DNA of 64,000 bases, taken from Candidatus Brocadiia bacterium (GTDB lineage Bacteria > Planctomycetota > Brocadiia > SM23-32). Shown one piece after another: positions 4,444 through 26,405 of the stretch; position 1 is the stretch's first letter, and each line of letters starts with the position of its first letter. The position numbers and the translations under genes were made by a program. A model generated the notes under the pieces. The model saw only the letters and a list, made by a program, of their open reading frames with translations. It ran no database searches and was not told the origin of the DNA. Where the stretch lies: positions 11,603 through 75,602 of the forward strand of contig JBKHIT010000018.1 in the NCBI GenBank assembly GCA_046538485.1. Reading direction: 5' to 3'.

Positions 4444-4485
4444 AATAAAGGCTCCTGATCCCGGGCAGGGCAAGAACGTCTTACT

Positions 4486-4842: not shown

Positions 4843-4892
4843 GAAACTCTCCTTCGTGCTCTCTTACTTTTCTGCAGCGATCCGGGGCACAC

Positions 4893-6911: not shown

Positions 6912-6930
6912 TTTTGAACTTTCTTTCCAC

Positions 6931-7941: not shown

Positions 7942-8008
7942 GGCCGATTTCCTCTGTTTGTTTAGAGGCTACCAGAAACCGGGATTTTGCCGGCAATGCC
8001 TGGCGCCC

Positions 8009-8335: not shown

Positions 8336-8793
8336 TGTTCCTCGTGGGCCTCATTAATGATCTGTATCACATTTTCGGGATCGCGAGCAGAGATCAGTCG
8401 ATCGTAGACGTTAGGGATCTGCACGAGCAGTCCGATATCGGCAAGGGCCTCAATAGTCTGGCTCGGTTTGTCCGGCGCCCCGAGCAGAAGAAACACAAGA
8501 TAAACCGGTTCGTCGTCGACAGCATCAAACTCGATCCCCTCAGGAGCAATACCAACGGCGAGAAGACAATCGTCAACATCCGGATGCCGGGCATGAGGAA
8601 CCGCCACACCACAGCCAATCCCGGTTGACCCTTTTCGCTCCCGCTCGTAAAGAGTATCAAGAATCCCGGCTCGGTCCCCGATTTTATCCTGCCGCACCAG
8701 CTGTTCGACCAGTTCGGCAATTACCTCATCGCGTGTCATGCTCTCAACGGGGACTTTGATCAGGCCGGGTTCGAGAAGATCGCTTAAATTCAT
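8332..8793 (-). CDS. PTS EIIA type-2 domain protein (PtsN/EIIA-Ntr-like regulator)
   Basis: 153 aa with GSTGIGCGVAVPHARH containing the phosphorylatable His of the fructose/mannitol/Ntr EIIA family. Its stop overlaps the next gene's start (ATGA at 8332-8335). Confidence 0.8.
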   Translation of the reverse strand: MNLSDLLEPGLIKVPVESMTRDEVIAELVEQLVRQDKIGDRAGILDTLYERERKGSTGIGCGVAVPHARHPDVDDCLLAVGIAPEGIEFDAVDDEPVYLVFLLLGAPDKPSQTIEALADIGLLVQIPNVYDRLISARDPENVIQIINEAHEEQ

Positions 8794-10149: not shown

Positions 10150-10446
10150 ATGGTATATGTGCCATCTGAAAACGAAACCCCAATGACCGATCCAGAAACC
10201 AAAGAAGTCATAAACGACGTATTCGCCGAGGATTTTGAAATCCCCCGCGAGAAACTGCGGCCCGAAGCGCACATATTTGAAGACCTCGGGCTCGATAGCC
10301 TCGATGTCGTCGACCTGATTGCGGCCATTCAAAAGCGGTTTCAGGTACGCGTTCGCGACGACGAACGCGTGCGTTCGGTACGGACGCTTGGAGATCTTTA
10401 CGAATACCTGGAAACGGTCCGCAGCGAACTCGAGGCAAAGGATTGA
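10150..10446 (+). CDS. acyl carrier protein (ACP1)
   Basis: 98 aa with the phosphopantetheine attachment motif EDLGLDSLDVVDLI. AGGAAA lies 7 nt upstream of the ATG. Confidence 0.85.
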   Translation: MVYVPSENETPMTDPETKEVINDVFAEDFEIPREKLRPEAHIFEDLGLDSLDVVDLIAAIQKRFQVRVRDDERVRSVRTLGDLYEYLETVRSELEAKD

Positions 10447-10541: not shown

Positions 10542-11285
10542 ATGCTCGTAACCATACAGAATTTGGTGTTCTGGCCGCTTTTTCTGGCCGCGTCCGCTAT
10601 TTACATTCCCGTAGCAACCCTCATCATAGCCCCCATTGGTCTGCTTGCCCCGCGACGCTTTGCCATGCATCGGTTGCGCCGTACGATAACCTGGTATGGC
10701 CGGTTGGTTATCTGGTGCGCATGGCCTTTTGTACGGGTAAAATACAAGGATCTGAAACCGGAGGAAAAAGATGGGTCCTATATATTCATCTGCAACCATC
10801 GTTCCTCCTCGGACCCATTCCTCATGGCGTGTTTGCCTTTTGAGTGCGTTCAAATCGTTAACGACTGGCCTTTGGAACTCCCTATCCTGGGCTGGCTCGC
10901 CCGGCTGGCAGGATATATCGATATAATGAATACATCAATAGAAGAATTTTACGAACATGGTTCTCGTTTGTTGAATCAGGGTGCATGTATCTGTTCCTTC
11001 CCGGAAGGCACCCGATCGGGAAGCCAGCAGATGGGCCCTTTCACAAGCTCGGTTTTCCGGCTGGCCATCCGGAATCATGCCACTCTGGTTCCGCTGGCCA
11101 TCACCGGCAATGAAAATATCCCACATAAAGGATCCTGGATACTCCATCCGGGTCTTATCCGCGTCGACAAATTGCCCGCAGTTACCTGGGATGAGTACGC
11201 TGATATGGACGCGTTTCACCTGAAAAATCACGTGCAACAAATTTTGCAGGAGCATATCGACCGGGTCGAAGGAGATGCTGCATGA
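10542..11285 (+). CDS. lysophospholipid (1-acyl-glycerol-3-phosphate-type) acyltransferase, PlsC/LPLAT family
   Basis: HX4D block NHRSSSDPF and FPEGTRS block, with N-terminal TM helices. Confidence 0.85.
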   Translation: MLVTIQNLVFWPLFLAASAIYIPVATLIIAPIGLLAPRRFAMHRLRRTITWYGRLVIWCAWPFVRVKYKDLKPEEKDGSYIFICNHRSSSDPFLMACLPFECVQIVNDWPLELPILGWLARLAGYIDIMNTSIEEFYEHGSRLLNQGACICSFPEGTRSGSQQMGPFTSSVFRLAIRNHATLVPLAITGNENIPHKGSWILHPGLIRVDKLPAVTWDEYADMDAFHLKNHVQQILQEHIDRVEGDAA

Positions 11286-12580
11286 TTTTCACCAACTACG
11301 AAAAACTCGCGTGGAAAGCTCCCGACGAAATAAAACAAACCCAGAACGCGCTTTTGCGCGAGCACGTGGAATACTGCGCCGAGCATTCGCCGTATTATCG
11401 TCGGGTCCTGGATGAACCGGGCGTCTCCGATCTGGACATCTCGGTTGATTCCCTGCAAAAACTGCCCCTGACCCGCAAGGCAGATCTCGGGAAATATAAC
11501 GACGAATTCCTGGCGGTGAACCCCAAGAAGATAGTGGATATTGTATTTTCCTCCGGCACTACCGGCCCACCGACACGCATTGCCTACACGGAACACGACC
11601 TGGAAAGGTTGGCTTACAACGAACGCCAGTCGTTTTTGGGAACGGGAATGACGCCCGAGGATACGGTTTTACACACCTGCACGATGGACCGTTGTTTTGT
11701 GGCCGGACTCGCCTATTACCTGGGGGTGCGTAGCGTGGGAGCCGCCAGTATCCGCAGCGGTCATGCCCCCCTGGAAAGTCATTTGCAAATCCTGCGCCGG
11801 TCCGAGCCAACGGCGATTGTCGGCGTTCCTTCCTTCCTGAAAAAACTCGCGGAGTGTGCGGAACAAAACACTATCAATCCCGCCGATATGTCCGTCAAAA
11901 GTCTTGTATGTATTGGCGAACCCGTTCGCGACGAAAACCTGCAATATTTGCCTCTCGGTCGGATTATTCATGAAAAATGGGGCGCCGATGTCTACTCAAC
12001 CTATGCTTCCACCGAAGCGGTCACGACGTTCTGTGAATGCACCAAACAACAAGGCGGGCATCTCCATCCTGAATTGGCAGTGATTGAAATCGTCGATGAC
12101 CAGGGGGACCCGGTTAAGCCGGGTGAAAATGGCGAAGTTGTGCTCACTCCTCTGGGGACCGAAGGGATGCCCCTGATCCGTTATCGCACGGGCGATATCT
12201 CTTTCCTGCTGGAGGAGCCCTGTGGGTGTGGCCGAAACAGCGTCCGCCTGGGACCGATACTCGGACGCAAAAAGCAGATGATCAAATACAAGGGAACGAC
12301 GCTGTATCCGCAACCCATCGCCGCGGCCCTGCAAACCATACCCGCTATTGAAGAACATTATGTCGAAGTCGCGGGCGAAGAAGCCTTGTCCGATCAGCTC
12401 ACTATCCATGTCGCGGTCAGCGATCCCGAATGGGACGCCGATCGCATCGCCGCCCGACTGCAGTCACACCTGCGTGTAAAACCGGCGGTTGTTATCGAAG
12501 AGCTCGAGTCTCTGCGCAAAGAAGTTTTTGACCCCAAATATCGCAAGCCGATGCGTTTTGTTGACCGGAGGACCACGTGA
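11282..12580 (+). CDS. adenylate-forming ligase, phenylacetate-CoA ligase / coenzyme F390 synthetase-like (ANL superfamily)
   Basis: 432 aa with VFSSGTTGPPTRIAYT and an N-terminal ...HSPYYRRVL..., typical of the PaaK-like subfamily. ATGA overlap with the upstream gene. Confidence 0.8.
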   Translation: MIFTNYEKLAWKAPDEIKQTQNALLREHVEYCAEHSPYYRRVLDEPGVSDLDISVDSLQKLPLTRKADLGKYNDEFLAVNPKKIVDIVFSSGTTGPPTRIAYTEHDLERLAYNERQSFLGTGMTPEDTVLHTCTMDRCFVAGLAYYLGVRSVGAASIRSGHAPLESHLQILRRSEPTAIVGVPSFLKKLAECAEQNTINPADMSVKSLVCIGEPVRDENLQYLPLGRIIHEKWGADVYSTYASTEAVTTFCECTKQQGGHLHPELAVIEIVDDQGDPVKPGENGEVVLTPLGTEGMPLIRYRTGDISFLLEEPCGCGRNSVRLGPILGRKKQMIKYKGTTLYPQPIAAALQTIPAIEEHYVEVAGEEALSDQLTIHVAVSDPEWDADRIAARLQSHLRVKPAVVIEELESLRKEVFDPKYRKPMRFVDRRTT

Positions 12581-14061
12581 GTATTAACTGCCCAAACCCG
12601 ATAGATGGATTCGGCTTTTCTGAAGAAGAAATTGCCGAAACTGTGGAACGCAGGGGCCTGTTGTCAATGGAAATAGAATTTTCCCAGGCGTGCAATTTCC
12701 GTTGCCCATATTGCTATAACGAGGAGGCTTTTGAGGCTCAGGAACTGAAACCCGAAGAAATCGATGACGTCGTTATCCAGGCCAAAGAACTGGGCGCCAA
12801 AAAAATCATTATCCTTGGCGGCGAACCGATGATCTACCCCGAAATACGGGAGCGAATTGAATTTCTGCGGGAAAATGATCTCACGGTGGAAATGTTTACA
12901 AACGGGACAAATATGACGCCGGAAAACGCCCGTTTCATGTATGAACATGACGTCGCGGTGGTGCTGAAACTCAACACCTTCGACCGGGAGCTCCAAAACG
13001 AATTGACCGGTTGCGAGAAAGGGTATGAAATCATCCACAGTGCTCTGGACAATCTGCAGGAAGCCGGCTACCCCTCCCCCGCCAAACGCCTGGCGATAAG
13101 TACAATCATATGCCGCCAGAACATCGACGAACTTCCCGATCTCTGGCGATGGGCCCGTCAACGGGGAATCGAACCGTATTTCGAAATGATCACACCTCAG
13201 GGACGGTCCATTGCCAACGAATGGCTCCTGGCGCCGATTTCGGAACAGAAAGAACTATTCGATGAATTGTCCCGCATTGATCGCGAAGAATTCGATCACA
13301 AATGGGATCCCCAGCCTCCCCTGGTGGGCAACCGGTGTTTGCGTCACCAATTTTCATGTCTGGTTACTTCGGATGGCAATGTCATGCCCTGCGTTGGAGT
13401 AACGATTCCGATCGGCAATATCCGCGAAGAACCGCTTGAGCAGATTTTGGATCGTAGCGAAGTTATGGAAAAGCTACGGCACTTCTCGGAATACATCAGG
13501 GAGCCGTGTCGTTCGTGCGAAAGATCGGGCGGCTGCTACGGATGTCGCGGTAGCGCCTATCAGTTGACCGGTGATTTTCTGGCAGCCGATCCGTTCTGCT
13601 GGCACAATGAGGACAAAGAAATTCAAGCTCTGCCGCGTCAGGTTAAACCATTTCTACCCCACGAACGTCCCATGTTAATGGTCAAGGAACTTGTTTCGGC
13701 CGGCGAACGGCGGGGGAAAGTGCGCGCTACCCCGTTGGCAGAGGACATCTTCGTTAATGAAGATGGTGTGCTGGACGAAACGGCTTACGTTGAATTACTG
13801 GCTCAATCGATTGCCGCTGTACACGGTTTTCTTCAGAACGAAGAAGAACGAAAAAACCATGATGGCCTGCTCATGAGCGCCAGAAATGTAGAAGTCTCCG
13901 GGCTCGCTCATGTCGGGGATACCCTCGAGATAAGTGTTCACAAAACCGTTAAAATGGGTGATTTCGGGGTTGTGCAGGGTAGTATCAGTAAAGACGGTGC
14001 TGAAATAGCAAACGGACAGATTAGTATCTGGCAACCTTCCAACGGAGAAAAAACAATATGA
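12577..14061 (+). CDS. radical SAM / SPASM-domain enzyme fused to a C-terminal hotdog (dehydratase-like) domain
   Basis: CX3CX2C at aa 39-46 (CNFRCPYC). Eight further Cys lie in the SPASM-like region (C254, C261, C272, CRSC at 311-314, C320, C323, C341). Aa ~352-494 (nt ~13630-14061) begin LPHERPMLMVKELV and continue with AQSIAAVHGF, like the stand-alone hotdog dehydratase partners of APE-type clusters. Confidence 0.85.
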   Translation: MSINCPNPIDGFGFSEEEIAETVERRGLLSMEIEFSQACNFRCPYCYNEEAFEAQELKPEEIDDVVIQAKELGAKKIIILGGEPMIYPEIRERIEFLRENDLTVEMFTNGTNMTPENARFMYEHDVAVVLKLNTFDRELQNELTGCEKGYEIIHSALDNLQEAGYPSPAKRLAISTIICRQNIDELPDLWRWARQRGIEPYFEMITPQGRSIANEWLLAPISEQKELFDELSRIDREEFDHKWDPQPPLVGNRCLRHQFSCLVTSDGNVMPCVGVTIPIGNIREEPLEQILDRSEVMEKLRHFSEYIREPCRSCERSGGCYGCRGSAYQLTGDFLAADPFCWHNEDKEIQALPRQVKPFLPHERPMLMVKELVSAGERRGKVRATPLAEDIFVNEDGVLDETAYVELLAQSIAAVHGFLQNEEERKNHDGLLMSARNVEVSGLAHVGDTLEISVHKTVKMGDFGVVQGSISKDGAEIANGQISIWQPSNGEKTI

Positions 14062-14816
14062 AAAGACTTTCCTTCCTGATGATAATGGCTCTTCTTGCTT
14101 TTGGGCTCGCGTTTGGAGAAGAAAAAAAAGAGGGGAACGCCGAAAAGGATTCCAAAAAATCCGAAGAAAAACAGAAAGAAGCTAACGCCAAAGAGGAAGG
14201 CGAACCTGAGGAGGGGAAAAAAGAAGAGAAAAAGCCCGACAAACGGACTAAGAAAGAGATCATGGAGGATCTCGAAAAACACCTCTCCGAAATCGAGACG
14301 GTTCAGGCACGCTTTGTTCAGGAAAAACACCTCGCCATGTTTGAACGCAAAATGACCATCGAAGGACATCTGGCCGTCGCCAATCCGAATCAAGTGGCCT
14401 GGCATGTCCAGAAACCGGTCCGTTACCGGATGGTCATTTGTGGTCCGAAATTGAAACAATGGGAAGAAGATACCAACGAGGTAAAAACGCTCCGGTTGGA
14501 CAAAAACGCCACCCATAAGGTAGCATTCGAGCAACTCACCGCCTGGTTCGCGGGTCGGTACGGGGATCTGCGAGAACGCTACAATGTCGAAGTAATGGAC
14601 CGCGATCCTCTGACACTTACTTTCACGCCGAAAGAAGGTGGCGACATGGAATCGATTATCAAAAGTGTCCGGGTCGTGTTCCGCGACAATGAAGATTACC
14701 TGAAAAAGATAAAAATCACCCAGGGCAACGATGATGTGACAATAGTCCGCTTTTTTGATCTGCAACTGAACGAAAAAGTCGATGAAGAAGTCTGGAGGGT
14801 CCGCCCCGATGAGTAA
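14058..14816 (+). CDS. LolA-like periplasmic lipid/lipoprotein carrier protein
   Basis: Signal peptide MKRLSFLMIMALLAFGLAFG, then a K/E-rich linker, then a ~190-aa domain (VQARFVQEKHLAMFERKMTIEGHLAV...) resembling the LolA-like proteins paired with MMPL exporters. ATGA overlap upstream. Confidence 0.65.
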   Translation: MKRLSFLMIMALLAFGLAFGEEKKEGNAEKDSKKSEEKQKEANAKEEGEPEEGKKEEKKPDKRTKKEIMEDLEKHLSEIETVQARFVQEKHLAMFERKMTIEGHLAVANPNQVAWHVQKPVRYRMVICGPKLKQWEEDTNEVKTLRLDKNATHKVAFEQLTAWFAGRYGDLRERYNVEVMDRDPLTLTFTPKEGGDMESIIKSVRVVFRDNEDYLKKIKITQGNDDVTIVRFFDLQLNEKVDEEVWRVRPDE

Positions 14817-17205
14817 TGGGTGGTTCGAACGAATCTTTTGGGCCCTCTATCGCCGCCCGCTGGCCGTTATTATCGGGCTGGTGACCGTGGCGTTGCTGTC
14901 CCTGCTGGGGCTGAAAACAATTCCCTATGAGGGGGGGTTGGTGGCGATGCTGCCCGAGGGAAGCCGGGGCCGCAGGACAGTGGAATTTCTCCGCGATGCC
15001 CAGTTCGCCGACAAAGTTGCCGTAAGCATCACAGCCGAAGATCCAGACAGCGGCGTGGCGGATCTCATCGCCGTTATGGATGAACTGCGGGGGCAACTTG
15101 TAGACTCCTCTCTTATACGCCGCGTACAAACCCTGCCGGGTGGCAAAAACATGATGAAAGAGCTGGTATTCTTCCTCGATCATGCCCCCGAACTCCTCAG
15201 CGAGAACGACCTCGAAGGTTTGGAGAATCGGTTGAGCCAGGAAAAAATTCAAAAACGGATCAGAGAGTGTTACGTCAAACTGGCCCGCCCCGAAGGATCT
15301 TTTATGCAGGAGATTCTCCGACGAGATCCTCTCGGTATAAGCACTGTTATTCTGCAGCGTCTCCAAAAAATACCCGAGGCATCCGGTTATCATGTGATGG
15401 TTCAGAATGGTCACCTGATTCATCCTGACAAGCGACACGGCCTGCTGGTTATGGATGCTGCGATTTCTATTACCGATGGGGTGGGCTCGCGTCATCTTGT
15501 CGAAATGTTGCGGGAAACCACGTCGGATCTGCCCGATGGTTACACAGCAGATATTGTCTGCGGTCACCTGCATACAGTCAGTAACGAAGATCGTCTGCGT
15601 GCGGATATCCGCCTCACGGCGACCGTGGCGGGAGTAGGATTCTTCGCCCTGTTTCTTCTCATTTTCCGGGACATTCGTGCCGCACTCATATTCTTCATAC
15701 CAGCAATATCAATATTGGTCGCCGTTAACGGAGCCAGCTTTTTCATCCCGGAACTCTCTTATCTGGTGTTGGGTTTTGCACCCGTTATGGCGGGGATAGC
15801 CGTGGATTACGGCATCCACACCTTCATCGCCGTCCGGGACGGCAAAAACCCCTACGCCGCCGTGCGGCGCATAATCAGGCCCCTGATCATCGGCGCTTTG
15901 ACCACCGAATGCGTGTTTTTGGCGTTCTCTGTCTCCTCAATACCAGGCTACCGCCAGCTGGGCGGCCTGGCACTCGCAAGCATGGCTCTGTCGCTCTTTG
16001 GGGCTATTCTACTGTTGCCTCCGCTTGTAAAATATCCTGACTACTATCTGAAAATTGATCCCCAGGATGCACCGGAAGGGAAAAAAGGCTGGGCCATCTT
16101 CTTTCTTATCTCCCTGGGAATCGCCGGGCTCTTAACAACAAACCTCCAGATCGATCCCGGAGTGACAAAACTCGACGGCATCAGTGACGATATTTTGCAA
16201 ACTGAAAAAGAATTTAAACAACTTTGGGGCGGAGGAAAGGGCGGACAGGCAATCGCGGTAATCGGGGGCAAAACTTACGAAGAAACCGCTCGTCGCTGCG
16301 ATAAATTCCACAAACATATCAACTCGGCTCTTCCTAAACTGAACTTCATCAGCCGCAGTTCGGTCTGGCCCGCCAGGGCAAACCGCACCAAAAACGCCAG
16401 ACGCTGGGAGGATTTTTGGACAGCCGACCGTATCGAAAAAGTCCGCTCCAATGTGAGTGTGGCCGCCGAAAAGTATGGTTTCGCCGAAAATGCTTTCACA
16501 CCTTTCTTCGACCTGATTACCGAAGAATACACGGTGAGTTCCCAAACAAAAAAATCTATCATCCTGGAGCAGCTGGAACGGCGGTTTGTTAAAAAACGCA
16601 AAGGAGGCTATTGGTTTCTGGGATTCTTCCCGGATAACCCGGGCACGGTTGAAGCGGTGGCGAAAGAAGCCGAAAAATCCCCCTACAGTTTTGTGGTATC
16701 GCCCCGATCCCTCACCGGTACCCTGGCCGATTCGATCAGTTCAGAGGCCTTGCGGATTTCTCTGATCGCCGGCAGCTTAATCCTGTTCTTTACATTTTTC
16801 CTGATGCGAAATATCCGCCTGTCCCTGGCGGCATTGCTCCCCGCGGCCACCGGCGTAATTTGGTTGCTCGCGGTGATGTCAATATGCAACTTGCCCGTCA
16901 ATGTGGCTAATCTCATCGCGGGAATTGTCGTAATAGGACTCTGTATTGATTATGGTATCTTTATGGCACATGGCTGGGCGCAAGGCGCCAGGGTCCTCGT
17001 GCCGACATTGCAGGCAGTCACGCTCTCGGCCATCACTACGTTAATTGGCGCAGGCGTATTGGTTTTTGCCAAACATCCTGCTCTGTTCTCAATCGGCATC
17101 ACATTGGTTTTGGGAATATTTACAGGTTATGGAACGGCCGCTCTCGGCGTGCCGGGAATGTGCTCGTTGCTCGGGATCGATTCGGCGAAAGGAGATTCAG
17201 AATGA
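14809..17205 (+). CDS. MMPL/RND-superfamily exporter
   Basis: ~800 aa with two clusters of TM helices separated by large soluble domains. Start chosen at ATG 14809 (GGAGGG 9 nt upstream) rather than ORF-track 14782. Confidence 0.85.
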   Translation: MSNGWFERIFWALYRRPLAVIIGLVTVALLSLLGLKTIPYEGGLVAMLPEGSRGRRTVEFLRDAQFADKVAVSITAEDPDSGVADLIAVMDELRGQLVDSSLIRRVQTLPGGKNMMKELVFFLDHAPELLSENDLEGLENRLSQEKIQKRIRECYVKLARPEGSFMQEILRRDPLGISTVILQRLQKIPEASGYHVMVQNGHLIHPDKRHGLLVMDAAISITDGVGSRHLVEMLRETTSDLPDGYTADIVCGHLHTVSNEDRLRADIRLTATVAGVGFFALFLLIFRDIRAALIFFIPAISILVAVNGASFFIPELSYLVLGFAPVMAGIAVDYGIHTFIAVRDGKNPYAAVRRIIRPLIIGALTTECVFLAFSVSSIPGYRQLGGLALASMALSLFGAILLLPPLVKYPDYYLKIDPQDAPEGKKGWAIFFLISLGIAGLLTTNLQIDPGVTKLDGISDDILQTEKEFKQLWGGGKGGQAIAVIGGKTYEETARRCDKFHKHINSALPKLNFISRSSVWPARANRTKNARRWEDFWTADRIEKVRSNVSVAAEKYGFAENAFTPFFDLITEEYTVSSQTKKSIILEQLERRFVKKRKGGYWFLGFFPDNPGTVEAVAKEAEKSPYSFVVSPRSLTGTLADSISSEALRISLIAGSLILFFTFFLMRNIRLSLAALLPAATGVIWLLAVMSICNLPVNVANLIAGIVVIGLCIDYGIFMAHGWAQGARVLVPTLQAVTLSAITTLIGAGVLVFAKHPALFSIGITLVLGIFTGYGTAALGVPGMCSLLGIDSAKGDSE

Positions 17206-17924
17206 AACGATCATTAGTGATGGGTTGCCTGATAGGGGTGGTCCTGACCGGTTGCTACAGTCCTCCCTTCGAACAAACCGAACTCGTCTCGGTCGAAAAT
17301 GTAAGCCCGGAAACAGTTTCGTGGAACTTCCAACAGCAGATTGCTCCCGCGTTCGAGAGCGAGGAGAGGTTGGTTTTCCGCGTTTTCTTGGGCTGGAAGA
17401 AAATCGCCGTCCTCGGCCTCACTCGGCTCGACCGCGAGGACCGGACACTTGAAGCCCTTTGCCTCAACCATCTGGGAGTCTCTCTTTTCCATATCAAGGG
17501 GACTCCGGATGAAACGAAACTCCGCTATGGCCTCCCTGAATTCAAAAAACACAAAAAATTCCCTCTGGCGGTCGGAACCGATATCCGCCGCATCTGTTTC
17601 GATCTTGTCCCGGCAGAAAACGCCAAAGTCATAGCAAAGCCCAAGCGCATAATCTTCCGCCAAAAACAAGACGGAGGTATTTTGGAATATGTTTTCGGGG
17701 GGCCGAACGTGTTATTGCTGGAGAAACGCTTCTTCAATAAGTGCTTCTTTGGCAGGAAGTTGCGTTGGAAAGTTCAATATTTCGAGTACCAGGAAAAAGA
17801 CGATTACGTTTATCCGCGAGGCATTGTCCTTTACAATCGGAAGAATCATTACAGGTTGATCGCCCAAAGACGTAAAATCATCTTTGATACGGAACGAGCG
17901 CAGAATCGGGAAGCGCAGCCGTGA
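17202..17924 (+). CDS. lipoprotein of unknown function (possibly DUF3261-like)
   Basis: The ATG at 17202 overlaps the MMPL stop (ATGA). Lipobox VLTG-C in MKRSLVMGCLIGVVLTGCYSPP. The family assignment rests on position only. Confidence 0.6.
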   Translation: MKRSLVMGCLIGVVLTGCYSPPFEQTELVSVENVSPETVSWNFQQQIAPAFESEERLVFRVFLGWKKIAVLGLTRLDREDRTLEALCLNHLGVSLFHIKGTPDETKLRYGLPEFKKHKKFPLAVGTDIRRICFDLVPAENAKVIAKPKRIIFRQKQDGGILEYVFGGPNVLLLEKRFFNKCFFGRKLRWKVQYFEYQEKDDYVYPRGIVLYNRKNHYRLIAQRRKIIFDTERAQNREAQP

Positions 17925-18307
17925 ATTTGATGCGAGAACAATTGAGAGATGCACTCCTCGTCAGTTCGTCCGGGGACAATGAGTTTACGGCTGAATTAAA
18001 GCTCAGCCCCGATTTTGTGGGGTTCAAAGGCCATTTCCCCGGCACTCCTGTGTTACCCGGTATCTGTATTATCGCTGCCGTGATTGTCTCTGCCGAATCG
18101 GTGCTGGGGAAAGACCTGAAAATGAAGTACCTGAACGCAGCGAAATTTTTCTCCCCCGTCGAACCCGGGGATCGGATGGTAATTACCGGGACTCTAAAGA
18201 CGGAATCGGCACCCTACTCGGTCCGCGCACAAATCACTCGCGATCAGGAGAGAATCGCAAAGGTTTCCCTCCAGGTCGATCCTGTAACATCAGACGCTCA
18301 GGACTGA
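17921..18307 (+). CDS. FabZ/FabA-like 3-hydroxyacyl-ACP dehydratase (hotdog)
   Basis: 128 aa with FKGHFPGTPVLPGICII, the catalytic-His motif of FabZ-type dehydratases. GTGA overlap upstream. Confidence 0.8.
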   Translation: MNLMREQLRDALLVSSSGDNEFTAELKLSPDFVGFKGHFPGTPVLPGICIIAAVIVSAESVLGKDLKMKYLNAAKFFSPVEPGDRMVITGTLKTESAPYSVRAQITRDQERIAKVSLQVDPVTSDAQD

Positions 18308-18310
18308 GAT

Positions 18311-18802
18311 ATGGGACCAATGCCCCGTCGAAAGAAAAACGGTTATTTCGAACGCTTTCCGGACGATCCGGCACCCGTCAGTGTCGATGTGAAACGGAGG
18401 GTCTCTTTCAGTGAGGTCGACCCCCTGGGTATCCTCTGGCATGGACGTTATTCCACTTACTTCGAGCAGGCCAACGAAGAGCTCGGCCGACGCTGTCAGA
18501 TGAGCTATGTTCATTTCAAAGAGGCCGGGCTCCGAGCCCCGGTTGTCCAGTTCCATCTGGATTACTTTGCGCCTCTTGAACTCGCAGAGGAAGCCCGAAT
18601 CGTTGGCCGTATGATCTGGAATGAAGGGGCGCGAATGAATATTGAATACGAATTATATAAAGAAAACGGAACTCTCGCTGCTACCGGTTACACGGTCCAG
18701 ATGTTTGTCACAGCGTCGGGCGAAACCCTCGTCGGTTCTCCCCCGCTCCTTGAACGCTGTCGGGAACGTTGGACCAGCGGCGAATTCTCGGAGATGCAAT
18801 GA
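18311..18802 (+). CDS. acyl-CoA/acyl-ACP thioesterase, 4HBT (YbgC-like) family
   Basis: 163 aa with VSFSEVDPLGILWHGRYSTYFEQA (catalytic Asp region of 4HBT hotdog thioesterases). Confidence 0.8.
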   Translation: MGPMPRRKKNGYFERFPDDPAPVSVDVKRRVSFSEVDPLGILWHGRYSTYFEQANEELGRRCQMSYVHFKEAGLRAPVVQFHLDYFAPLELAEEARIVGRMIWNEGARMNIEYELYKENGTLAATGYTVQMFVTASGETLVGSPPLLERCRERWTSGEFSEMQ

Positions 18803-19926
18803 ACCCCCTCATCGTTGCTTGCAGTGCGAACACTCCCTACGGACCCGGTCTCCGGAAATGCTGGGAAGGTCTGATGGCGGGCCGATCCGGCATTCGGTCT
18901 GTGGAACGATTTGGTGAAGGCCAATTTATATCCGATTATGCGGCTCTCGTGCCCGATATCCCGATGAAGACGGGAAACCGGTTGATGGAACTTCTGGGAC
19001 CGGTCCTAGAAAATTTGCCGAATTCCTTGCCACCGGAAATTCCCTTGTTTCTCGCTACCACCACCGGCCAGATCGATCTACTTGAACAGAGCGTGGAAAA
19101 AGGCTCGGGGCAAATCGAGTCAAGCTCGCCTCTCCGGTTGCTCGGTGAATTGCGGCAACTGACCGGCATACGCGGGCCCGCGAGAGTCGTCTCCTGCGCG
19201 TGCGCGTCCTCCACGGCCGCCGTCGCTCGCGCCGCAAGTGAAGTGCAGGCCGGACACGCCGAAACCGCCCTTGTCGTCGGTTGCGACGCCGTCAGCGAAT
19301 TCGTCTACGCCGGTTTCTCAACCCTAATGGCTATGTCACCTCAACCGGCCCGCCCCTTCGACCGCGACCGCGACGGGCTGACGGTCGGTGAAGCGGCCGC
19401 CGCAACCTTCGTTATGAACCCGTCGCAAGCGGGCGCCGGAAAGTATCAGCCGCTGGCTGAGGTTCTGGGCTGGGGATACACCAATGATGCCAATCACATG
19501 ACCGGCCCGTCGCGTGACGGTAAAGGGTTGAAAAGGGCCATCGAAATCGCACTCGATATGGCCGCCTGCGCCCCCGAGGACATCGCATTCGTTAATGCCC
19601 ACGGAACGGGCACTGTTTACAACGATGCCATGGAAATGAAAGCTCTCAGACAGGTTTTCGGCGACAATCCCAAGCCGGCATACTCGATCAAAGGCGGGAC
19701 CGGCCACACAATGGGAGCCGCGGGTCTGTTGGAAATCCTGTTGACCGCTGAGTCTTTGAAAGAAGCAATCATCCCCCCTACCGTCGGGATGGACGAACCG
19801 GACGAGCAAGCTCAAGGGTGGGTAAAAACAGAACCCGTTTCAGTTCCCGCAAATCGTCCGGCCCTCAGCGTTAATTCCGGTTTCGGCGGTGTTAACGTGG
19901 CCGTGGTTCTCCAGAAAACGCCCTGA
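18799..19926 (+). CDS. beta-ketoacyl-ACP synthase (KS1, FabF/FabB-type, catalytically complete)
   Basis: Cys-His-His triad: VVSCACASSTAA, DANHMTGP, VNAHGTGT, plus GHTMGAAG. The ATG at 18799 overlaps the thioesterase stop (ATGA). Confidence 0.9.
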   Translation: MNPLIVACSANTPYGPGLRKCWEGLMAGRSGIRSVERFGEGQFISDYAALVPDIPMKTGNRLMELLGPVLENLPNSLPPEIPLFLATTTGQIDLLEQSVEKGSGQIESSSPLRLLGELRQLTGIRGPARVVSCACASSTAAVARAASEVQAGHAETALVVGCDAVSEFVYAGFSTLMAMSPQPARPFDRDRDGLTVGEAAAATFVMNPSQAGAGKYQPLAEVLGWGYTNDANHMTGPSRDGKGLKRAIEIALDMAACAPEDIAFVNAHGTGTVYNDAMEMKALRQVFGDNPKPAYSIKGGTGHTMGAAGLLEILLTAESLKEAIIPPTVGMDEPDEQAQGWVKTEPVSVPANRPALSVNSGFGGVNVAVVLQKTP

Positions 19927-19981
19927 AAAACTTTATCCGATCCTGCGGAATCCACTCAAGAACAGAAAAACAAATACGGAC

Positions 19982-20686
19982 ATGACAAAACCAGATTCCA
20001 GTGTGCCTGCGATGATATCCGCGGGATGGGTGCGGCCCCGGAGTGGAGGCCATTGGACCGGAGACGCATGCGACGAAGCACCGGTCGCAGACGTGAACGA
20101 GCTTTTTACAAAAGAAATTCTCAATCATACAAATGTAAAAAATCACGGTCGATTTCCGGATGGCACACGAGCGGTCTGTTCGGCCTGCGCTCTGGCATTG
20201 AAAGGCGCCGGACTCTGGCCAGGAGACCAAAAGAGACCAAACACCGGTCTTCTGATCGCCGGATACGATCACACATTGATGCAGAACTGCTCTTTTTTTC
20301 AGGACTACATTGATAACGATAGGATAATAGCCCGTGGACAGCTATTCATCTACACCCTCCCGACAAGCGCGGTTGCTGAAGCGGCCATCCTGCTCAAAGC
20401 AGAAGGTCCTCTGCTCTTCGAAGAATCCGGAAAAGCACCTTTCGCGAATTTGTTGAACGTGGGGGAGGGCCTTATCAACTCCGGGCAGGCCGAACGGATG
20501 ATGCTTGTCTGGCAGAATACCGAAACGACTCTCTGCGGTCTGCTCGATGGCACATCGGCCGGGGCCAGCGGGAATTCGAATCAACATCTGATAACAATTG
20601 CCCAGAAATGGAATAACCCCGTCGACGGAATTGACTTTTTTCGCGACCAAACATCGGGCAGAAACGAAAAAGAAAGAACGACATGA
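19982..20686 (+). CDS. KS N-terminal-like domain protein (half-size, non-catalytic KS partner)
   Basis: ~234 aa from ATG 19982. It resembles only the N-terminal thiolase half (RAVCSACALALKGAG, LFIYTLPTSAVAEAAILLKAEGP) and has no His-His C-terminal half. Confidence 0.55.
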   Translation: MTKPDSSVPAMISAGWVRPRSGGHWTGDACDEAPVADVNELFTKEILNHTNVKNHGRFPDGTRAVCSACALALKGAGLWPGDQKRPNTGLLIAGYDHTLMQNCSFFQDYIDNDRIIARGQLFIYTLPTSAVAEAAILLKAEGPLLFEESGKAPFANLLNVGEGLINSGQAERMMLVWQNTETTLCGLLDGTSAGASGNSNQHLITIAQKWNNPVDGIDFFRDQTSGRNEKERTT

Positions 20687-21933
20687 TGAAGGTTAAACTG
20701 ATTTACCCAAGGTGGCCAAAACTCAGAAACCAACCGGAGTTTGACCTCCCACCTCACGCCCCTGTTGTGGTTGCAGCGGCCTTTCCAGACGACGTTGAAA
20801 TATCTTTCTGCGATGAAAACGTCTCCGAATTGAACTTCCAGGAAGACGCCGACCTGATCGCCATTTCCTGCCTGCTGACCTGTCAGATGCCCCGGGCCTG
20901 GGAGATTGGTGACCGCTACCGGGAATTGGGCAAACCCGTGATTTTCGGTGGGATCGGCACAATGCTCCACGCCGATGAGACCCAACAGCACGCCGACAGC
21001 GTTTTTATCGGCGAAGCCGAGGGGCGAATAGAAGAAGTAATCAGAGATGCCAAACACGATGAGCTAAAACCGCGTTACGACTATTTCCACGATTGGCCCG
21101 ACCTCGAAACCGTCGGTCCGGCACGACGCGATATTTTGGAAAAGGAAAAATACAGCTTCCGAAACGTTCAAATGGTCGACCTTGTCCACGCGTCCCGAGG
21201 ATGCCGGTTCAACTGTTTCCCCTGCTGCACCCCGTATCTGGGCGGTCGCCAGTTCCGCCCTCGTCCCATGGATAAAGTCGTCGAAGAAGTCGCCGGGATC
21301 GAGAACAACCGTCTGTTTTTTGTCGACAATTCGATGGCCCAGGATGACGAGTGGGAGAAAGAACTTTTCCGGGCTATCGCCCCGCTGAAAAAAAAGTGGA
21401 TCTCCCATCCAATCAAAGATGATCCGGAAATCATGGATCTGGCCGCCGAAGCCGGTTGCTGGTACGTCTATCAAGCCATTATCAACACCTCTGAGGTCAT
21501 CGCTAACCGCATTCGGCGTCTCAAGGAACGCGGGATCGGCGTCGAAGGAACCGTCATCCTTGGCACAGACGATCAGGATGTGGATTCCATAAAACGTCTC
21601 GTAGACTTTCTGCTTGAGCTGGAACTCGACCTGGCAGAATTTACCATACTTACACCTTTCCCCGAGACCCCAATCCGGCGCGAATATGAGGAGCAAAATC
21701 GCATACTCAGTAACGATTGGATCAAATATACCTGCGACGAAACGGTTTTCCAGCCCGCCCAATTGACCATCGATGAACTCTACGAAATGTATGAATACGC
21801 CTGGGATCAATTTTACTCCGACTGCAGCATCGAACTGAAAATGGCCAAACTTTACGTCGATGTGATCAGCAAGGAAAAAGCCGACGGCACTTATAAAGGA
21901 ACCAAAGACTCCGGGCCAAAATGGGGGCGCTAA
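20683..21933 (+). CDS. B12-binding-domain radical SAM enzyme (class B) 1
   Basis: 416 aa with an N-terminal Rossmann-like B12-binding region (KVKLIYP...DLIAISCLL...VIFGGIG) and CX3CX2C = CRFNCFPC. ATGA overlap upstream. Confidence 0.85.
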   Translation: MMKVKLIYPRWPKLRNQPEFDLPPHAPVVVAAAFPDDVEISFCDENVSELNFQEDADLIAISCLLTCQMPRAWEIGDRYRELGKPVIFGGIGTMLHADETQQHADSVFIGEAEGRIEEVIRDAKHDELKPRYDYFHDWPDLETVGPARRDILEKEKYSFRNVQMVDLVHASRGCRFNCFPCCTPYLGGRQFRPRPMDKVVEEVAGIENNRLFFVDNSMAQDDEWEKELFRAIAPLKKKWISHPIKDDPEIMDLAAEAGCWYVYQAIINTSEVIANRIRRLKERGIGVEGTVILGTDDQDVDSIKRLVDFLLELELDLAEFTILTPFPETPIRREYEEQNRILSNDWIKYTCDETVFQPAQLTIDELYEMYEYAWDQFYSDCSIELKMAKLYVDVISKEKADGTYKGTKDSGPKWGR

Positions 21934-21938
21934 AAAGA

Positions 21939-23285
21939 ATGAAAATTCTGCTGATATCTGCCAATACCGCAAAGATGCCCTACCCGGTTTATCCCCTCGG
22001 GTTGAGTATCGTCGCCGCCGCAGCCCGGGAAGCCGGTCACCAGGTGCAATATTTCGATTTTCTCCAGAGTGATATGTCGTTCAGCGCGCTGGAAAAAACT
22101 ATCGAAAAAGAATCGCCAGACGTGATCGGAATCTCAATACGTAACATCGATAATGTCAATATCCTGCGCGAAGAATGCTACCTCGAAAAGGTACGGCGTA
22201 TCGTCGAATTGCTGCGGGAAATATCAAACGCCAAAATTGTGCTCGGTGGCTCGGCTTTTTCCATTATGCCGGAACCAATACTCAAAACCGTTGGCGGAGA
22301 CTACGGAATCTGCGGAGAAGGCGAACAGGTCTTCGTCCGGTTCCTCAATGAAGCCGAAAAAGGGAATTACCCGCCGACCGGCACTATCCTGTCAGGCGAC
22401 GACTACCTCGGGGGTGATGCCATGCCTTCCCCTTACTACGAAAAGGACCTGCTGGCAAGATACCTGGAAAGCGGCAGCGTAACTCCTGTCCAGACCAAAC
22501 GCGGCTGCCCCCATAACTGCCTCTATTGCTCCTACCCGGCGCTGGAAGGACACAAGCTGCGCCCACGCGATCCCGTCCAGGTCGTCGACGATATCGAAGC
22601 CCTGCAGAACGAACATGAAGTGAGTTATGTTTTTTTTACGGATTCCGTCTTCAATGACAGCAAAGGCCTCTTCCTGGAAGTTGTGCGGGAGATGAAAAAA
22701 AGAGGGATCAGAATCCCCTGGTCCGCATTCTTCAACCCTGCAAACATCACACCGGAAAACGTGGCGGAGATGAAAGAAACGGGACTGCGTGCCGCGGAGG
22801 TGGGTTCCGATGCCGCCTGTGACGAAACACTCAAAGGCCAGCGCAAACCTTTCACCTGGGCGGATGTGATCAGAGCAAACGACATCTTTCGAGACGGCGG
22901 CGTTTCAACGGCACACTATTTCATGTTCGGGGGACCCGGCGAAACCCGCGAAACTGTCAAAAAAGGAATCGAAAACATAAAAAACCTCGATTGTTCCGCC
23001 GTTTTCGTGTTCCTGGGCATACGCATCTTGCCGCGCACCGAATTGAAGGAAGTCGCAATTCGCGAAAGCCTCGTCTCTGCCGACAATGAGCTGCTGGAAC
23101 CGGTTTACTACTTTTCGCCGGCACTGGATCGGGACTGGCTCGAGAAAACGCTCAACGAAGCTTTCGAGCCGCTTCGATACGTCGTGTACCCTCCCAACGC
23201 AATGGATGACAAACTCCAGATGCTCCACAAACTCGGCCATACCGGCGCGCTCTGGGACCTGCTGTCCGCATTGCCAGAAAATTAA
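21939..23285 (+). CDS. B12-binding-domain radical SAM enzyme (class B) 2
   Basis: MKILLISANTAKMPYPVYPLGLSIVAAAAREAGHQV... (B12-binding-like) and CX3CX2C = CPHNCLYC. An alternative start at 21921 is possible. Confidence 0.85.
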   Translation: MKILLISANTAKMPYPVYPLGLSIVAAAAREAGHQVQYFDFLQSDMSFSALEKTIEKESPDVIGISIRNIDNVNILREECYLEKVRRIVELLREISNAKIVLGGSAFSIMPEPILKTVGGDYGICGEGEQVFVRFLNEAEKGNYPPTGTILSGDDYLGGDAMPSPYYEKDLLARYLESGSVTPVQTKRGCPHNCLYCSYPALEGHKLRPRDPVQVVDDIEALQNEHEVSYVFFTDSVFNDSKGLFLEVVREMKKRGIRIPWSAFFNPANITPENVAEMKETGLRAAEVGSDAACDETLKGQRKPFTWADVIRANDIFRDGGVSTAHYFMFGGPGETRETVKKGIENIKNLDCSAVFVFLGIRILPRTELKEVAIRESLVSADNELLEPVYYFSPALDRDWLEKTLNEAFEPLRYVVYPPNAMDDKLQMLHKLGHTGALWDLLSALPEN

Positions 23286-23354: not shown

Positions 23355-23690
23355 ATGGTGAGCGCAACATCGGAAGCTGTTCTCGGAAAAAGGATTCCAA
23401 TTTTGGGCAAAGATATCGACGAACTCAAAAAAGAACTGAAAAGACTCCTGATCCAGGATCTGTCACTTGAAGATATTGAACCGGAAGATATCGAAGATGA
23501 TACCCCGCTGTTCGGAGATGAAGGAGTAGGGCTCGATTCACTCGATGGCGTGGAACTGGTCGTCATGCTTCAAAGAAATTACGGTCTGGAAGTCAAAGAA
23601 ATGCAAAAGGGTATGGAAATTTTCCAGACCATCAATACACTCGCCGACTACGTAATGGAAAATGCCGAGAAATATCCATCAAATTCCTGA
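23355..23690 (+). CDS. acyl carrier protein (ACP2)
   Basis: Motif DEGVGLDSLDGVELVVML. The exact start is uncertain. Confidence 0.8.
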   Translation: MVSATSEAVLGKRIPILGKDIDELKKELKRLLIQDLSLEDIEPEDIEDDTPLFGDEGVGLDSLDGVELVVMLQRNYGLEVKEMQKGMEIFQTINTLADYVMENAEKYPSNS

Positions 23691-23884: not shown

Positions 23885-25066
23885 ATGCTACCTCCCATTT
23901 ATATCACCGGTATAGGGCTTATATCCGCCGCCGGCGGCGATGTGTCGCAGACGTTGTCCTCCTTCAGGAACGGTGCCCCGGCTGCCGAACCGAAACCTTT
24001 CTCCGAAACAACCCTCGATTGCCCCGCTTTCCCGGCGGCCCAAAAGCCCCGATCCTCGCTCTGCCAGACCGATTGCCCGTCCCGAACCGTCGTCCTCGCC
24101 CTCCACGCCGTCGAAGAGGCACTCGAACGCGCCGGTCGACCCGACCGCGAAACAACCCTGCGAATCGGGGTCTGTATGGGCACAACCGTCGCCTGCCAGT
24201 TGAACAATCTCCGGTTCTACAAACAGTTTCGACAGACCTCCAGACCGTCCCTCGAACCGGTCCGTGATTTTCTCAATGGCAACCTCGCTCAATTTGTGGC
24301 CGCTTCACTCGATGCCCATGGCCCACGGGCAACCGTCGTAAACGCCTGCTCATCGGGCGCCGATGCCATAGGAATGGCTGTTCACTGGTTACAAAATGAC
24401 CTCTGTGATATCGCGGTGGCCGGTGGAGCCGACGAACTGAATCGAATCCCCATCTGCGGTTTCCACTCGCTCGGAATTATGAGCGACAATCCCTGCAAAC
24501 CCTTCGACAGAAACCGCGAGGGACTGAACCTCGGCGAAGGTGCCGGCGCGCTCGTGCTCGAAAGCGAAACCTCCGCGCGGAAACGCGGTCGAGAGCAAGA
24601 ACTGTTCCTGAAATCATACGCGGCCGGATGCGATGCCCACCATATCACTGCCCCGCACCCGGAAGGCGTGGGTCTGAAACTCGCGCTGGAATACGCCCTG
24701 AAATCGGCAGAGATCAAGCCGGACGATATCGCCTTTGTCAACGCTCACGGCACTGCCACCCCTGATAACGACCAGGTCGAGGGAAACGTGCTCGCCGAAT
24801 TTTTCGGCGAAGACCTCGTTTTCCTGTCCACAAAAGGATACACCGGCCATACGCTGGGCGCGGCGGGCGCGCTCGAAGCCGGTTTCACCGCCCTCGCCCT
24901 GCAAGTGGGCTGGCTCCCGGCTAATCGGGGCTTCCAAAACGCCGATCCCGATATCCCGATCTCCCCCCTCGTCGAGAAGACTCCGATCGTGGGCCGGGCC
25001 GCCGTTTCAACATCCCTCGCCTTCGGAGGCAACAACGCAGCCATCGTCATCGGGAGGGGAACATGA
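23885..25066 (+). CDS. beta-ketoacyl-ACP synthase (KS2, catalytically complete)
   Basis: VVNACSSGADA, CDAHHITAP, VNAHGTATPDND, GHTLGAAG. Confidence 0.9.
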   Translation: MLPPIYITGIGLISAAGGDVSQTLSSFRNGAPAAEPKPFSETTLDCPAFPAAQKPRSSLCQTDCPSRTVVLALHAVEEALERAGRPDRETTLRIGVCMGTTVACQLNNLRFYKQFRQTSRPSLEPVRDFLNGNLAQFVAASLDAHGPRATVVNACSSGADAIGMAVHWLQNDLCDIAVAGGADELNRIPICGFHSLGIMSDNPCKPFDRNREGLNLGEGAGALVLESETSARKRGREQELFLKSYAAGCDAHHITAPHPEGVGLKLALEYALKSAEIKPDDIAFVNAHGTATPDNDQVEGNVLAEFFGEDLVFLSTKGYTGHTLGAAGALEAGFTALALQVGWLPANRGFQNADPDIPISPLVEKTPIVGRAAVSTSLAFGGNNAAIVIGRGT

Positions 25067-26115
25067 TGGAGATCCAAGGATCAGGTGTAGTTTTCACCCA
25101 CGGTCGCGGGACGGAAGATCTGGACAAGATTTTGCGGGAAAATTGGATCCCCCCGGAGCGGCAGGATGTTCCGGGTCGCGACGCGCCAATGCCCGCATTC
25201 CGGGTGCCCAAAGAAACGCTCAAAGATAAAACCACCCTCAAGGGTATGCGCCGGGCGGATCGGCTCAGCCGGATGGCAACTCTCGCGGCCGCCGATGCCT
25301 GGCAAACGGCTTCGCTTGAAAACACCAATCCGGCGCGGGTGGGAATCATCCTCGCCACCGCCCTGGGGCCTCACGCCCGGACGTTTCAATTCCTCGACAA
25401 TATACTGGATTTCGGTGACGAGGCGGTCTCCCCAACAATTTTTTCGCATTCGGTGCACAACGCGGCGGCCTCGTATATCGCCACCACCCTCAATGTGCAC
25501 GGACCGGTCCTGACGGTCACGGATTTTGATTTTGCGTTCCAACAGGCGCTCGCTACCGCCCGGTGCTGGCTTGATCAGGACCGCTGTGATGCCGTGCTGG
25601 CCGGCACGGCCGAAGAACTCGGAGAAGTTATGCTCCACGTCTGCGGACGGATGGTCACAATGCCTGACAATGGAAGACCCAGACCGCTGGCTTTCGCCGA
25701 AAATCCCGTCATCGTCCCCGGGGAAGGAGCGGCTTTCTTCGTGCTCACCTCGGAAACCAGAGGTGAAGGAAGAGTTTCAGTAACGACCGCCAAATCCGAA
25801 AACGATGCGGACCTGACAATCCTCGATGCAGAGGGGCTTTCGGGATCGGAGATGGCTTATCGGGACCTCTTGCCAGAGACGGGCCAGGTGGCCAATTATT
25901 GCCCCGTGTTCGGAAGTATGATGACCGGCACCGCCCTGCAATGCACCATCGCGGAACTATCACTGCGAGGCCAGATGCGATACGCGAGTCCCCTGACAAA
26001 GGGGAAAGACCAACGGGCAGTATGCCTGGAAACGGGTCCTGCAGAGTTAAAAACTATTCGATGCGCCAAAGTCGGACGAGATGAGACGGTTCAAACGATT
26101 ACGCTCCGCCGGTAA
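25063..26115 (+). CDS. KS-like protein lacking catalytic residues (chain-length-factor-like partner of KS2)
   Basis: 350-aa thiolase-fold paralogue. The KS active-site position reads TVTDFDFAF (no Cys), and DAEGLSG replaces NAHGT. ATGA overlap with KS2. Confidence 0.7.
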   Translation: MMEIQGSGVVFTHGRGTEDLDKILRENWIPPERQDVPGRDAPMPAFRVPKETLKDKTTLKGMRRADRLSRMATLAAADAWQTASLENTNPARVGIILATALGPHARTFQFLDNILDFGDEAVSPTIFSHSVHNAAASYIATTLNVHGPVLTVTDFDFAFQQALATARCWLDQDRCDAVLAGTAEELGEVMLHVCGRMVTMPDNGRPRPLAFAENPVIVPGEGAAFFVLTSETRGEGRVSVTTAKSENDADLTILDAEGLSGSEMAYRDLLPETGQVANYCPVFGSMMTGTALQCTIAELSLRGQMRYASPLTKGKDQRAVCLETGPAELKTIRCAKVGRDETVQTITLRR

Positions 26116-26138: not shown

Positions 26139-26405
26139 GTGAAAATGGCAGAAACTGAAAACGTCGAAAAGATCGAAGAGATTCTTCTCCGGGAAATTGC
26201 TACAATACTCTCCATGGGGGAGGCGGAGATCACGCCCACAACACCACTGGCCTCGGTAGGCATGGATTCCATCCGGTTTGTCGAAGTCCTTCTTCTCATC
26301 GAGCGAGAATTCGACGTGGAACTCATTAAATCTCAGTTGAGTCGCGACGACGTCAAAGACATCGCCTCACTCGCCCGCTCCATCCACGCCGCGAAACAAC
26401 AGTAA
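26139..26405 (+). CDS. acyl carrier protein (ACP3)
   Basis: Motif LASVGMDSIRFVEVLLL. The start is either GTG 26139 or ATG 26145. Confidence 0.8.
   Translation: MKMAETENVEKIEEILLREIATILSMGEAEITPTTPLASVGMDSIRFVEVLLLIEREFDVELIKSQLSRDDVKDIASLARSIHAAKQQ

Follow-up and report, generated by a model that had tools for sequence, protein, structure and literature searches.

A radical-SAM/SPASM enzyme fused to an ApeP-type hotdog domain in a lipid operon of a Brocadiia bacterium, and its predicted pairing with an ApeI-like protein

What does a radical S-adenosylmethionine (radical-SAM) enzyme of the SPASM type act on when it carries one half of a putative dehydratase at its C-terminus? The question is raised by a gene (12577..14061, + strand; GTG start, TGA stop) in a 64,000-nucleotide stretch of a Candidatus Brocadiia bacterium genome (GenBank assembly GCA_046538485.1, contig JBKHIT010000018.1, positions 11,603 to 75,602), the whole of which we call the window. 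It encodes a 494-aa fusion of a radical-SAM core, a SPASM domain and a hotdog domain, and lies in an operon of lipid-type genes. [quoted passage not shown] We consider it most likely that the radical chemistry indeed acts on a carrier-protein-bound lipid chain rather than on a peptide. The fusion is probably a two-module enzyme, in which the hotdog domain would form the dehydratase of the pathway together with a separately encoded ApeI-like protein, while the radical module would act on the same ACP-tethered chain.

The C-terminal domain (aa ~353-488, 13633..14040, + strand) is of the ApeP type. It matches chain B of the solved Xenorhabdus doucetiae ApeI:ApeP complex (PDB 6QSR) both with phmmer (6qsr_B, E 9.5e-11 over 136 aa) and with Foldseek (E 4e-11, TM 0.76, 26% identity), and in Foldseek the last third of the fusion model also matches FabZ structures. 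With the Pfam profile ApeP-like (PF22817) the last 145 aa alone score 17.1 bits, under the gathering cutoff of 27; the same family is listed among the precomputed domains of each of the 120 best homologues and of P0002. The AlphaFold2 (AF2) model, built on 32 homologues, has a mean pLDDT (per-residue confidence) of 88.5 and a pTM (predicted TM score) of 0.85. It adopts the hotdog topology, with strands wrapping a long helix (aa 401-418), and its pTM indicates a defined inter-domain arrangement in the predicted structure, with a linker of ~12 residues between the SPASM module and the hotdog domain. The initial annotation had read this region as a hotdog domain and had set beforehand, as the outcome that would speak against its proposal, a failure to score or fold as such; the region does both.

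The predicted partner half is encoded at 17921..18307 (+ strand). This 128-aa protein scores 37.9 bits with the Pfam profile ApeI-like (cutoff 28.5) and matches 6qsr_A with an E value of 4e-7. Aligned with FabZ, it keeps the motif GHFPGTPVLPG with the catalytic His and has Ala at the position of the FabZ Glu. The fused hotdog domain has a deletion at the His motif and keeps the position of the catalytic Glu (E406) and the following AQ. Both E406 and Q410 are invariant in an alignment of 32 sequences (the fusion and 31 homologues, 48-66% identical), to which all statements on invariance below refer unless another set is named. Since the ApeI-like protein has the His without the Glu, it needs a Glu-donating partner, and the earlier idea of this open reading frame (ORF) as the partner half of a putative dehydratase is supported. 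The same division is found in 6QSR, where complementary His and Glu halves build one composite active site, as predicted for the pair in the window; chain B corresponds to the C-terminus of the fusion and chain A to the ORF at 17921. Apart from the fused domain, the window has no ApeP-type sequence, and the same holds for 25 of 26 related loci, 20 of which also carry ApeI.

Nature has joined and separated these parts in several ways. Thirteen natural single-chain ApeP-ApeI proteins of ~290 aa were found, whose N-terminal half matches the hotdog domain of the fusion (E 1e-18 to 1e-26) and whose C-terminal half matches the ApeI-like ORF (E 1e-11 to 1e-21); the GHF motif is present in the second half of all 13, and a strict E-x-x-A-Q in the first half of nine. 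In a Thermodesulfobacteriota locus (L043) an ATGA overlap couples two separate genes, one for the radical-SAM/SPASM protein and one for ApeP; split homologues beside ketosynthase (KS) and ACP genes thus exist, a possibility raised by the initial annotation. Together, the single-chain proteins and the coupled split pair argue that the parts work together. That a hotdog half can be joined to a neighbouring enzyme of an aryl polyene (APE) pathway is known from ApeH-ApeI of Acinetobacter baumannii. Here too a dehydratase half sits at the C-terminus of a pathway enzyme, ApeI on an adenylating ligase in that case and ApeP on a radical-SAM enzyme in ours, and the ApeH-fused ApeI still pairs with the free other half (PMC8041823).

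The fused domain might instead serve as an acyl-chain or ACP recognition module, a lipid counterpart of the RRE (recognition element of RiPPs, peptides made on the ribosome and modified after translation) found in SPASM enzymes that modify peptides, with dehydration left to a housekeeping FabZ or to ApeI alone. Such a role would fit a whole clade of homologues that has the radical module without the hotdog, and a window cluster that, without a ketoreductase, already relies on enzymes encoded elsewhere. We nevertheless regard it as unlikely, given that the residues at the FabZ catalytic-Glu motif do not vary, that the ApeI-like protein of the operon needs a Glu donor, that the cluster offers no other ApeP-type sequence and that single-chain ApeP-ApeI proteins exist.

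Three points speak against our own preference for a dehydratase-coupled enzyme. Homologues from Desulfobulbaceae, Desulfobacteraceae and Allochromatium (53-57% identity) lack the hotdog domain and an adjacent ApeP, so coupling to a dehydratase would help the radical module without being obligatory for it. In an unbootstrapped neighbour-joining tree this hotdog-less clade is nested within the fused forms, with the split and other hotdog-less forms basal. Secondly, neither a ketoreductase of the short-chain dehydrogenase/reductase (SDR) type (ApeQ) nor a phytoene-desaturase-like homologue was found anywhere in the 64-kb window, and the operon is therefore incomplete by itself. Both genes stand upstream in most syntenic loci, the latter as a phytoene-desaturase-like flavoenzyme, and the upstream KS that precedes the first ACP gene in most of them is also missing from the window cluster. 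Thirdly, the His/Glu assignment depends on an E. coli FabZ sequence that was entered by hand. The contig of the closest homologue (P0002, L081) has the same reduced layout as the window cluster.

The other two-thirds of the protein carry what a radical-SAM/SPASM enzyme requires. The radical-SAM core (aa 33-191, 12673..13149, + strand; PF04055, E 2.9e-24, 86.6 bits versus a cutoff of 29.5) contains the CxxxCxxC motif as CNFRCPYC (aa 39-46, 12691-12714) and the SAM-binding motif GGE (aa 81-83); C39, C43, C46, G81, G82 and E83 are all invariant. The SPASM domain (aa 254-341, 13336..13599, + strand) is matched by PF13186 over aa 254-315 (E 8.6e-11, 42.4 bits versus a cutoff of 21.5). Its eight cysteines, at positions 254, 261, 272, 311, 314, 320, 323 and 341, are spaced C254-x6-C261-x10-C272 ... 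C311-x2-C314-x5-C320-x2-C323 ... C341, the last spacing being x2 where x3 is usual, and would be enough for two fully Cys-ligated auxiliary [4Fe-4S] clusters. None of the eight varies, and both the count of eight and the range (aa 254-341) given in the initial annotation are exact. With all 11 Fe-S cysteines and GGE as invariant as E406 and Q410, the module is, on its motifs, catalytically equipped. That it could be a degenerate, non-catalytic scaffold is suggested by one relative (P0181) with a radical-SAM-like region that lacks CxxxCxxC; the conservation of the three cluster motifs and GGE in the fusion and the 31 aligned homologues makes this extremely improbable. P0181 itself (717 aa) reads acyltransferase, radical-SAM-like region, SPASM, ApeP, and is possibly a pseudo-SAM variant. 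Another composite, P0164 (720 aa), is a radical-SAM/SPASM-ApeP-LolA protein.

A peptide or protein substrate encoded elsewhere is what the SPASM family by itself would suggest. Most characterised SPASM enzymes modify peptides, and in Foldseek the first two-thirds of the AF2 model match SkfB, SuiB, PqqE, CteB and anSME, the first four being the nearest solved folds. The matches also include GDGT-MAS (7tom), which indicates that SPASM enzymes can act on lipid chains. Enzymes with non-peptide substrates, such as AhbD, NirJ, BtrN and GDGT-MAS/Tes, share the combination of a radical-SAM core with a Cys-rich auxiliary-cluster domain at the C-terminus, and an RRE is absent from them too. Neither a hotdog fusion nor a link to ACP or KS genes is known for any of them. 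The best NCBIfam scores of the fusion are those for AhbD and NirJ2 (about 120 bits), far under the equivalog cutoff of 500. Membership in AhbD (120.7 bits, cutoff 500), NirJ (119.4, 500), PqqE (113.7, 381) and MftC (89.1, 265) was accordingly rejected, and every peptide-maturase equivalog scores far under its cutoff.

The surroundings of the gene point in the same direction. The genes from 10542 to 23285 overlap or abut. No precursor-like conserved small ORF was found in or beside the operon, nor by synteny in about 25 loci; the sole sizeable gap (23690-23885) corresponds to ~20 bp in other loci and is not conserved. With ~30 aa ahead of CxxxCxxC, the N-terminus of the fusion is too short for an RRE, and none of the ORFs in the cluster has a Pfam match to a PqqD-type or RRE domain, the fusion itself matching Radical_SAM, SPASM and Fer4_12 only. 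The absence of a short precursor-like ORF, remarked on from the letters alone, therefore holds, and homologues are not tied to RiPP precursors, the other outcome set beforehand as speaking against the initial proposal: across phyla, about 25 loci invariably link the fusion to ACP, KS, hotdog and lipid-export genes. A RiPP maturase was rejected on these grounds (no precursor, no RRE, invariant lipid-gene synteny), and a peptide substrate encoded elsewhere is very unlikely.

The lipid character of the operon is evident from its genes, all on the + strand. It opens with ACP1 (10150..10446, 98 aa; PP-binding, E 2.2e-12; syntenic in about 20 loci), followed by an ApeD-like lysophospholipid-type acyltransferase (10542..11285; PF01553, E 6.6e-21) and, in the position of ApeH, an adenylating ligase similar to FlxY and PaaK (11282..12580; NCBIfam FlxY, 478.8 bits, slightly under the cutoff of 520). 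Downstream of the fusion lie the predicted export genes. These comprise an ApeL-like periplasmic lipid carrier of the LolA type (14058..14816; PF03548, E 9e-21; LolA2_flexi, 87.5 bits), an ApeM-like transporter of the RND (resistance-nodulation-division)/MMPL type (14782..17205; HpnN/HAE3-like matches and a weak MMPL match) and, in the position of ApeN, a syntenic lipoprotein-like ORF that is weakly LolB-like and has an N-terminal signal/lipobox-like sequence (17160..17924; PF03550, E 0.014). The ApeI-like gene is followed by an ApeK-like hotdog thioesterase of the 4HBT family (18311..18802; PF13279, E 2.3e-12), a FabF/ApeO-like ketosynthase with its active-site Cys (KS1, 18769..19926; 6qsp_A, 131 bits) and a conserved hypothetical protein of 265 aa (hyp265, 19889..20686), which is syntenic at 27-43% identity. 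Two B12-binding radical-SAM enzymes come next: B12a (20683..21933), which retains CRFNCFPC, and B12b (21921..23285), which belongs to TIGR04072 (rSAM_ladder_B12, lipid biosynthesis B12-binding/radical SAM protein; 601.8 bits versus a cutoff of 360). The cluster ends with ACP2 (23355..23690; PP-binding, E 7e-10), a second ketosynthase (KS2, 23885..25066), a chain-length-factor (CLF)-like KS homologue without the active-site Cys (25063..26115) and ACP3 (26139..26405; PP-binding, E 2.3e-10). The PP-binding matches confirm the three ACPs that had been noted near the fusion.

Judged by the ape genes of E. coli as tabulated in PMC8253772, an APE-type gene set is present: ACPs, ligase, KS and CLF, ApeI/ApeP, thioesterase, lysophospholipid-type acyltransferase and LolA/RND/LolB-like export. 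APE clusters thus share their loading, elongation, release and export genes with the operon. They differ in that canonical APE clusters have no radical-SAM enzymes, whereas ApeP of the window forms the C-terminal part of the 494-aa fusion, behind 350 aa of radical-SAM/SPASM. Some observations on single members may be added. B12a is 63-69% identical across phyla in syntenic loci of the fusion type, is more conserved than most other cluster proteins (the radical-SAM part of the fusion is 39-57% identical), has no NCBIfam family and scores below threshold for Pfam Radical_SAM. No match to hyp265 was found in Pfam, NCBIfam or PDB; an assignment as an ApeC-type chain-length factor has no support from these databases, and hyp265, possibly a CLF-like partner, is left unassigned. 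A 105-aa ORF after ACP3 (hyp105, 26431-26748), of low complexity and rich in Arg, Pro, Gly and Ala, has no family matches, is not seen in related loci and is probably not a real gene.

The gene order also bears on the moment at which the radical module would act. The conserved succession ACP1-acyltransferase-ligase-fusion puts the fusion beside the loading enzymes, and ApeH-type ligases load a starter straight onto an ACP (PMC8253772). The radical module could then act a single time, either on the starter or head group that the ligase has loaded onto ACP1 or on the completed chain, rather than on elongation intermediates, and being fused to a dehydratase that docks ACPs would do no more than bring the two together. 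In some fusion loci (L012, L013, L018, L040, L051), however, the ligase is not next to the fusion. We hold this timing to be unlikely, although the present data fit it as well as they fit our main reading.

The sequence of events that we favour instead starts from an anaerobe-type, aryl-polyene-like lipid route of type II polyketide synthase/fatty acid synthase (PKS/FAS) enzymes, labelled 'ladderane-type' in antiSMASH. The ApeP domain of the fusion would give Glu (E406) and the ApeI-like protein His, forming a single-site beta-hydroxyacyl-ACP dehydratase. To this dehydratase the radical-SAM/SPASM module, predicted to hold one SAM-cleaving and two auxiliary [4Fe-4S] clusters, would be tethered by the short linker. 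Being held on the dehydratase, it would receive the same ACP-tethered chain, most plausibly as the 2-enoyl or polyenoyl dehydration product. Abstraction of a hydrogen atom could lead to a two-electron oxidation, either C-C bond formation with cyclisation or desaturation, for which the auxiliary clusters may provide the electron outlet. The two B12 radical-SAM enzymes of the operon might add further modifications, after which the finished acyl chain would be released or transferred by the thioesterase and acyltransferase and exported to the outer membrane by the RND, LolA-like and LolB-like proteins. A more specific version is speculative, and we put it forward only tentatively: as a radical cyclase or cross-linker coupled to the dehydratase, the fusion would take an allylic hydrogen from the 2-enoyl/polyenoyl-ACP generated at the ApeI:ApeP site, once or each time, and form a C-C bond within the growing chain. 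If true, radical-SAM chemistry would for the first time have been shown for an enzyme acting on an ACP-bound intermediate in a type II elongation cycle.

The proposal has few counterparts. Jaw5 is a HemN-like radical-SAM enzyme, not one of the SPASM type, is not known to be fused to a dehydratase and works with a type I iterative PKS. Together with its iterative PKS, this radical-SAM cyclopropanase modifies a ketoacyl (enoyl) intermediate that is tethered to a carrier while the chain is being elongated, and a 2026 review names only Jaw5 and hypothetical ladderane enzymes as such cases (PMC13459092). The 'type c' proposal for ladderanes lets a radical-SAM enzyme work on the 2-enoyl intermediate of the dehydratase in each elongation cycle (PMC10139942); the architecture of the fusion is what this proposal would predict.

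Clusters of this type have been in the literature since 2009, adjoining the ladderane candidates of anammox bacteria. Rattray et al. 2009 described the kuste3335-3352 cluster of Kuenenia stuttgartiensis with counterparts in Desulfotalea, Geobacter and Pelobacter (PMC2649909). In this set a PaaK-like ligase stands beside 'SAM radical' genes, ACPs and FabF-like and non-canonical KS genes, together with FabZ, FabG, a phytoene-desaturase-like enzyme and an Mmp-type membrane protein (PMC2649909, PMC4790861). The repertoire of the Kuenenia and Desulfotalea psychrophila clusters is that of the window, except that FabG and the phytoene-desaturase-like gene are found only in the loci syntenic to it. 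Gene order, namely a position next to the ligase (PMC4790861), tentatively links their SAM-radical genes to the fusion as possible orthologues; PMC2649909 and PMC9902471 do not give the domain composition of these genes. Further, antiSMASH 'ladderane' biosynthetic gene clusters of unknown function have been reported from Desulfobacterota, Verrucomicrobiota, Planctomycetota and Omnitrophota outside the anammox group, where such clusters are routinely flagged, and they are expressed in anoxic waters (PMC9902471). These are the same taxa as those of the fusion family, and the neighbouring B12b, as a TIGR04072 protein, carries a shared ladderane-type marker. To our knowledge, ladderanes are known from anammox bacteria only, and we know of no fusion-bearing organism that makes them. 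Literature searches on the fusion, ApeP with radical SAM, TIGR04072, Kuste3342/3343 and DP1853/1855 returned no functional study, and we found no description of the fusion itself.

The initial annotation knew of no characterised example of this architecture. Our literature searches found none either, yet the fusion is less exotic than this implied, for it belongs to a large conserved family. A homologue search of 5.8 billion clustered proteins gave 1911 matches. The best 120 of these, from which the domain lists were taken, are all 464-522 aa long, all have the order Radical_SAM, SPASM, ApeP-like, and are named merely 'radical SAM protein'. The architecture spans six or more phyla, anaerobic for the most part; the sources of these 120 are Planctomycetota, Verrucomicrobiae, Omnitrophota, Kiritimatiellia, Lentisphaerota and Nitrospirota. 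With the hotdog domain as sole query, 723 representatives at 50% clustering were obtained with mixed architectures: stand-alone, radical-SAM-fused, ApeP-ApeI and radical-SAM/SPASM-ApeP-LolA. A scan of reference genomes, of which the best 80 loci were considered, revealed the operon order KS, ACP, acyltransferase, ligase, fusion, LolA, RND, (LolB-like), ApeI, thioesterase, KS, hypothetical, B12 radical SAM, B12 radical SAM. This order is kept across Omnitrophota, Nitrospirota, Planctomycetota, Lentisphaerota, Desulfobacterota and others, and the cultured Victivallis vadensis DSM 14823 (Lentisphaerota) carries the full syntenic cluster (L026). In one Nitrospirota locus (L015) a stand-alone ApeP/ApeI pair (5282-6082), with its own acyltransferase, KS and ACP, lies directly upstream of the fusion operon; the two look like adjoining APE-like systems.

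The interest of the family lies in the fact that radical-SAM chemistry on chains of the fatty-acid or polyketide type is almost unexplored. A radical module welded to the half-dehydratase that makes enoyl-ACP offers a physical clue to where such chemistry happens, in a family that is common among anaerobic Planctomycetota, Omnitrophota, Nitrospirota, Verrucomicrobiota/Lentisphaerota and Desulfobacterota. Its occurrence in cultured V. vadensis brings product and reaction within experimental reach, and both could inform the long-standing ladderane question.

The reading frame of the fusion is well defined. As claimed from the letters alone, the gene is translationally coupled on both sides: its start overlaps the stop of the ligase (GTGA, 12577-12580) and its stop overlaps the start of the LolA-like carrier (ATGA, 14058-14061). 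A GGAGGA Shine-Dalgarno sequence precedes the GTG. F14 and L28-S30 are invariant, and this conserved N-terminus speaks for the GTG start, which gives the longer protein, and against the internal Met at which the annotation of P0001 begins. P0001, the NCBI record of the nearest relative (95% identical), is annotated with 464 aa from a start 30 residues downstream, cutting off the conserved N-terminus; its public start is probably mis-called. Cys5 (M-x-x-C, 12589-12591) is invariant in the 32 closest homologues. It was dropped as a fusion-specific catalytic residue because the fusions of Lentisphaerota lack it and some Desulfobacteraceae homologues without a hotdog domain have it.

Outside the cluster, the region immediately upstream (182-8793, - strand) holds a V/A-type ATPase operon, complete with subunits B, A, E, F, c, I, C/d and a G-like one, and a PTS (phosphotransferase system) EIIA-2 domain gene. 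On the other side, a second co-directional gene group (27914-32069) encodes a 513-aa hypothetical protein with very weak condensation-domain similarity, a flavoprotein of the FAD_oxidored/geranylgeranyl-reductase-like kind and a fatty-acyl-CoA-ligase-like AMP-binding enzyme, and may be lipid-related. It is split from the cluster by a DUF1559/N-methyl protein typical of Planctomycetota (26785-27837, - strand). Further downstream, two paralogous TadG-like/VWA proteins (35950-37497 and 41486-43150) with the same domain order (Tad, Tad_C, VWA) are found in a Tad-pilus-like region with two further TadE-like genes.

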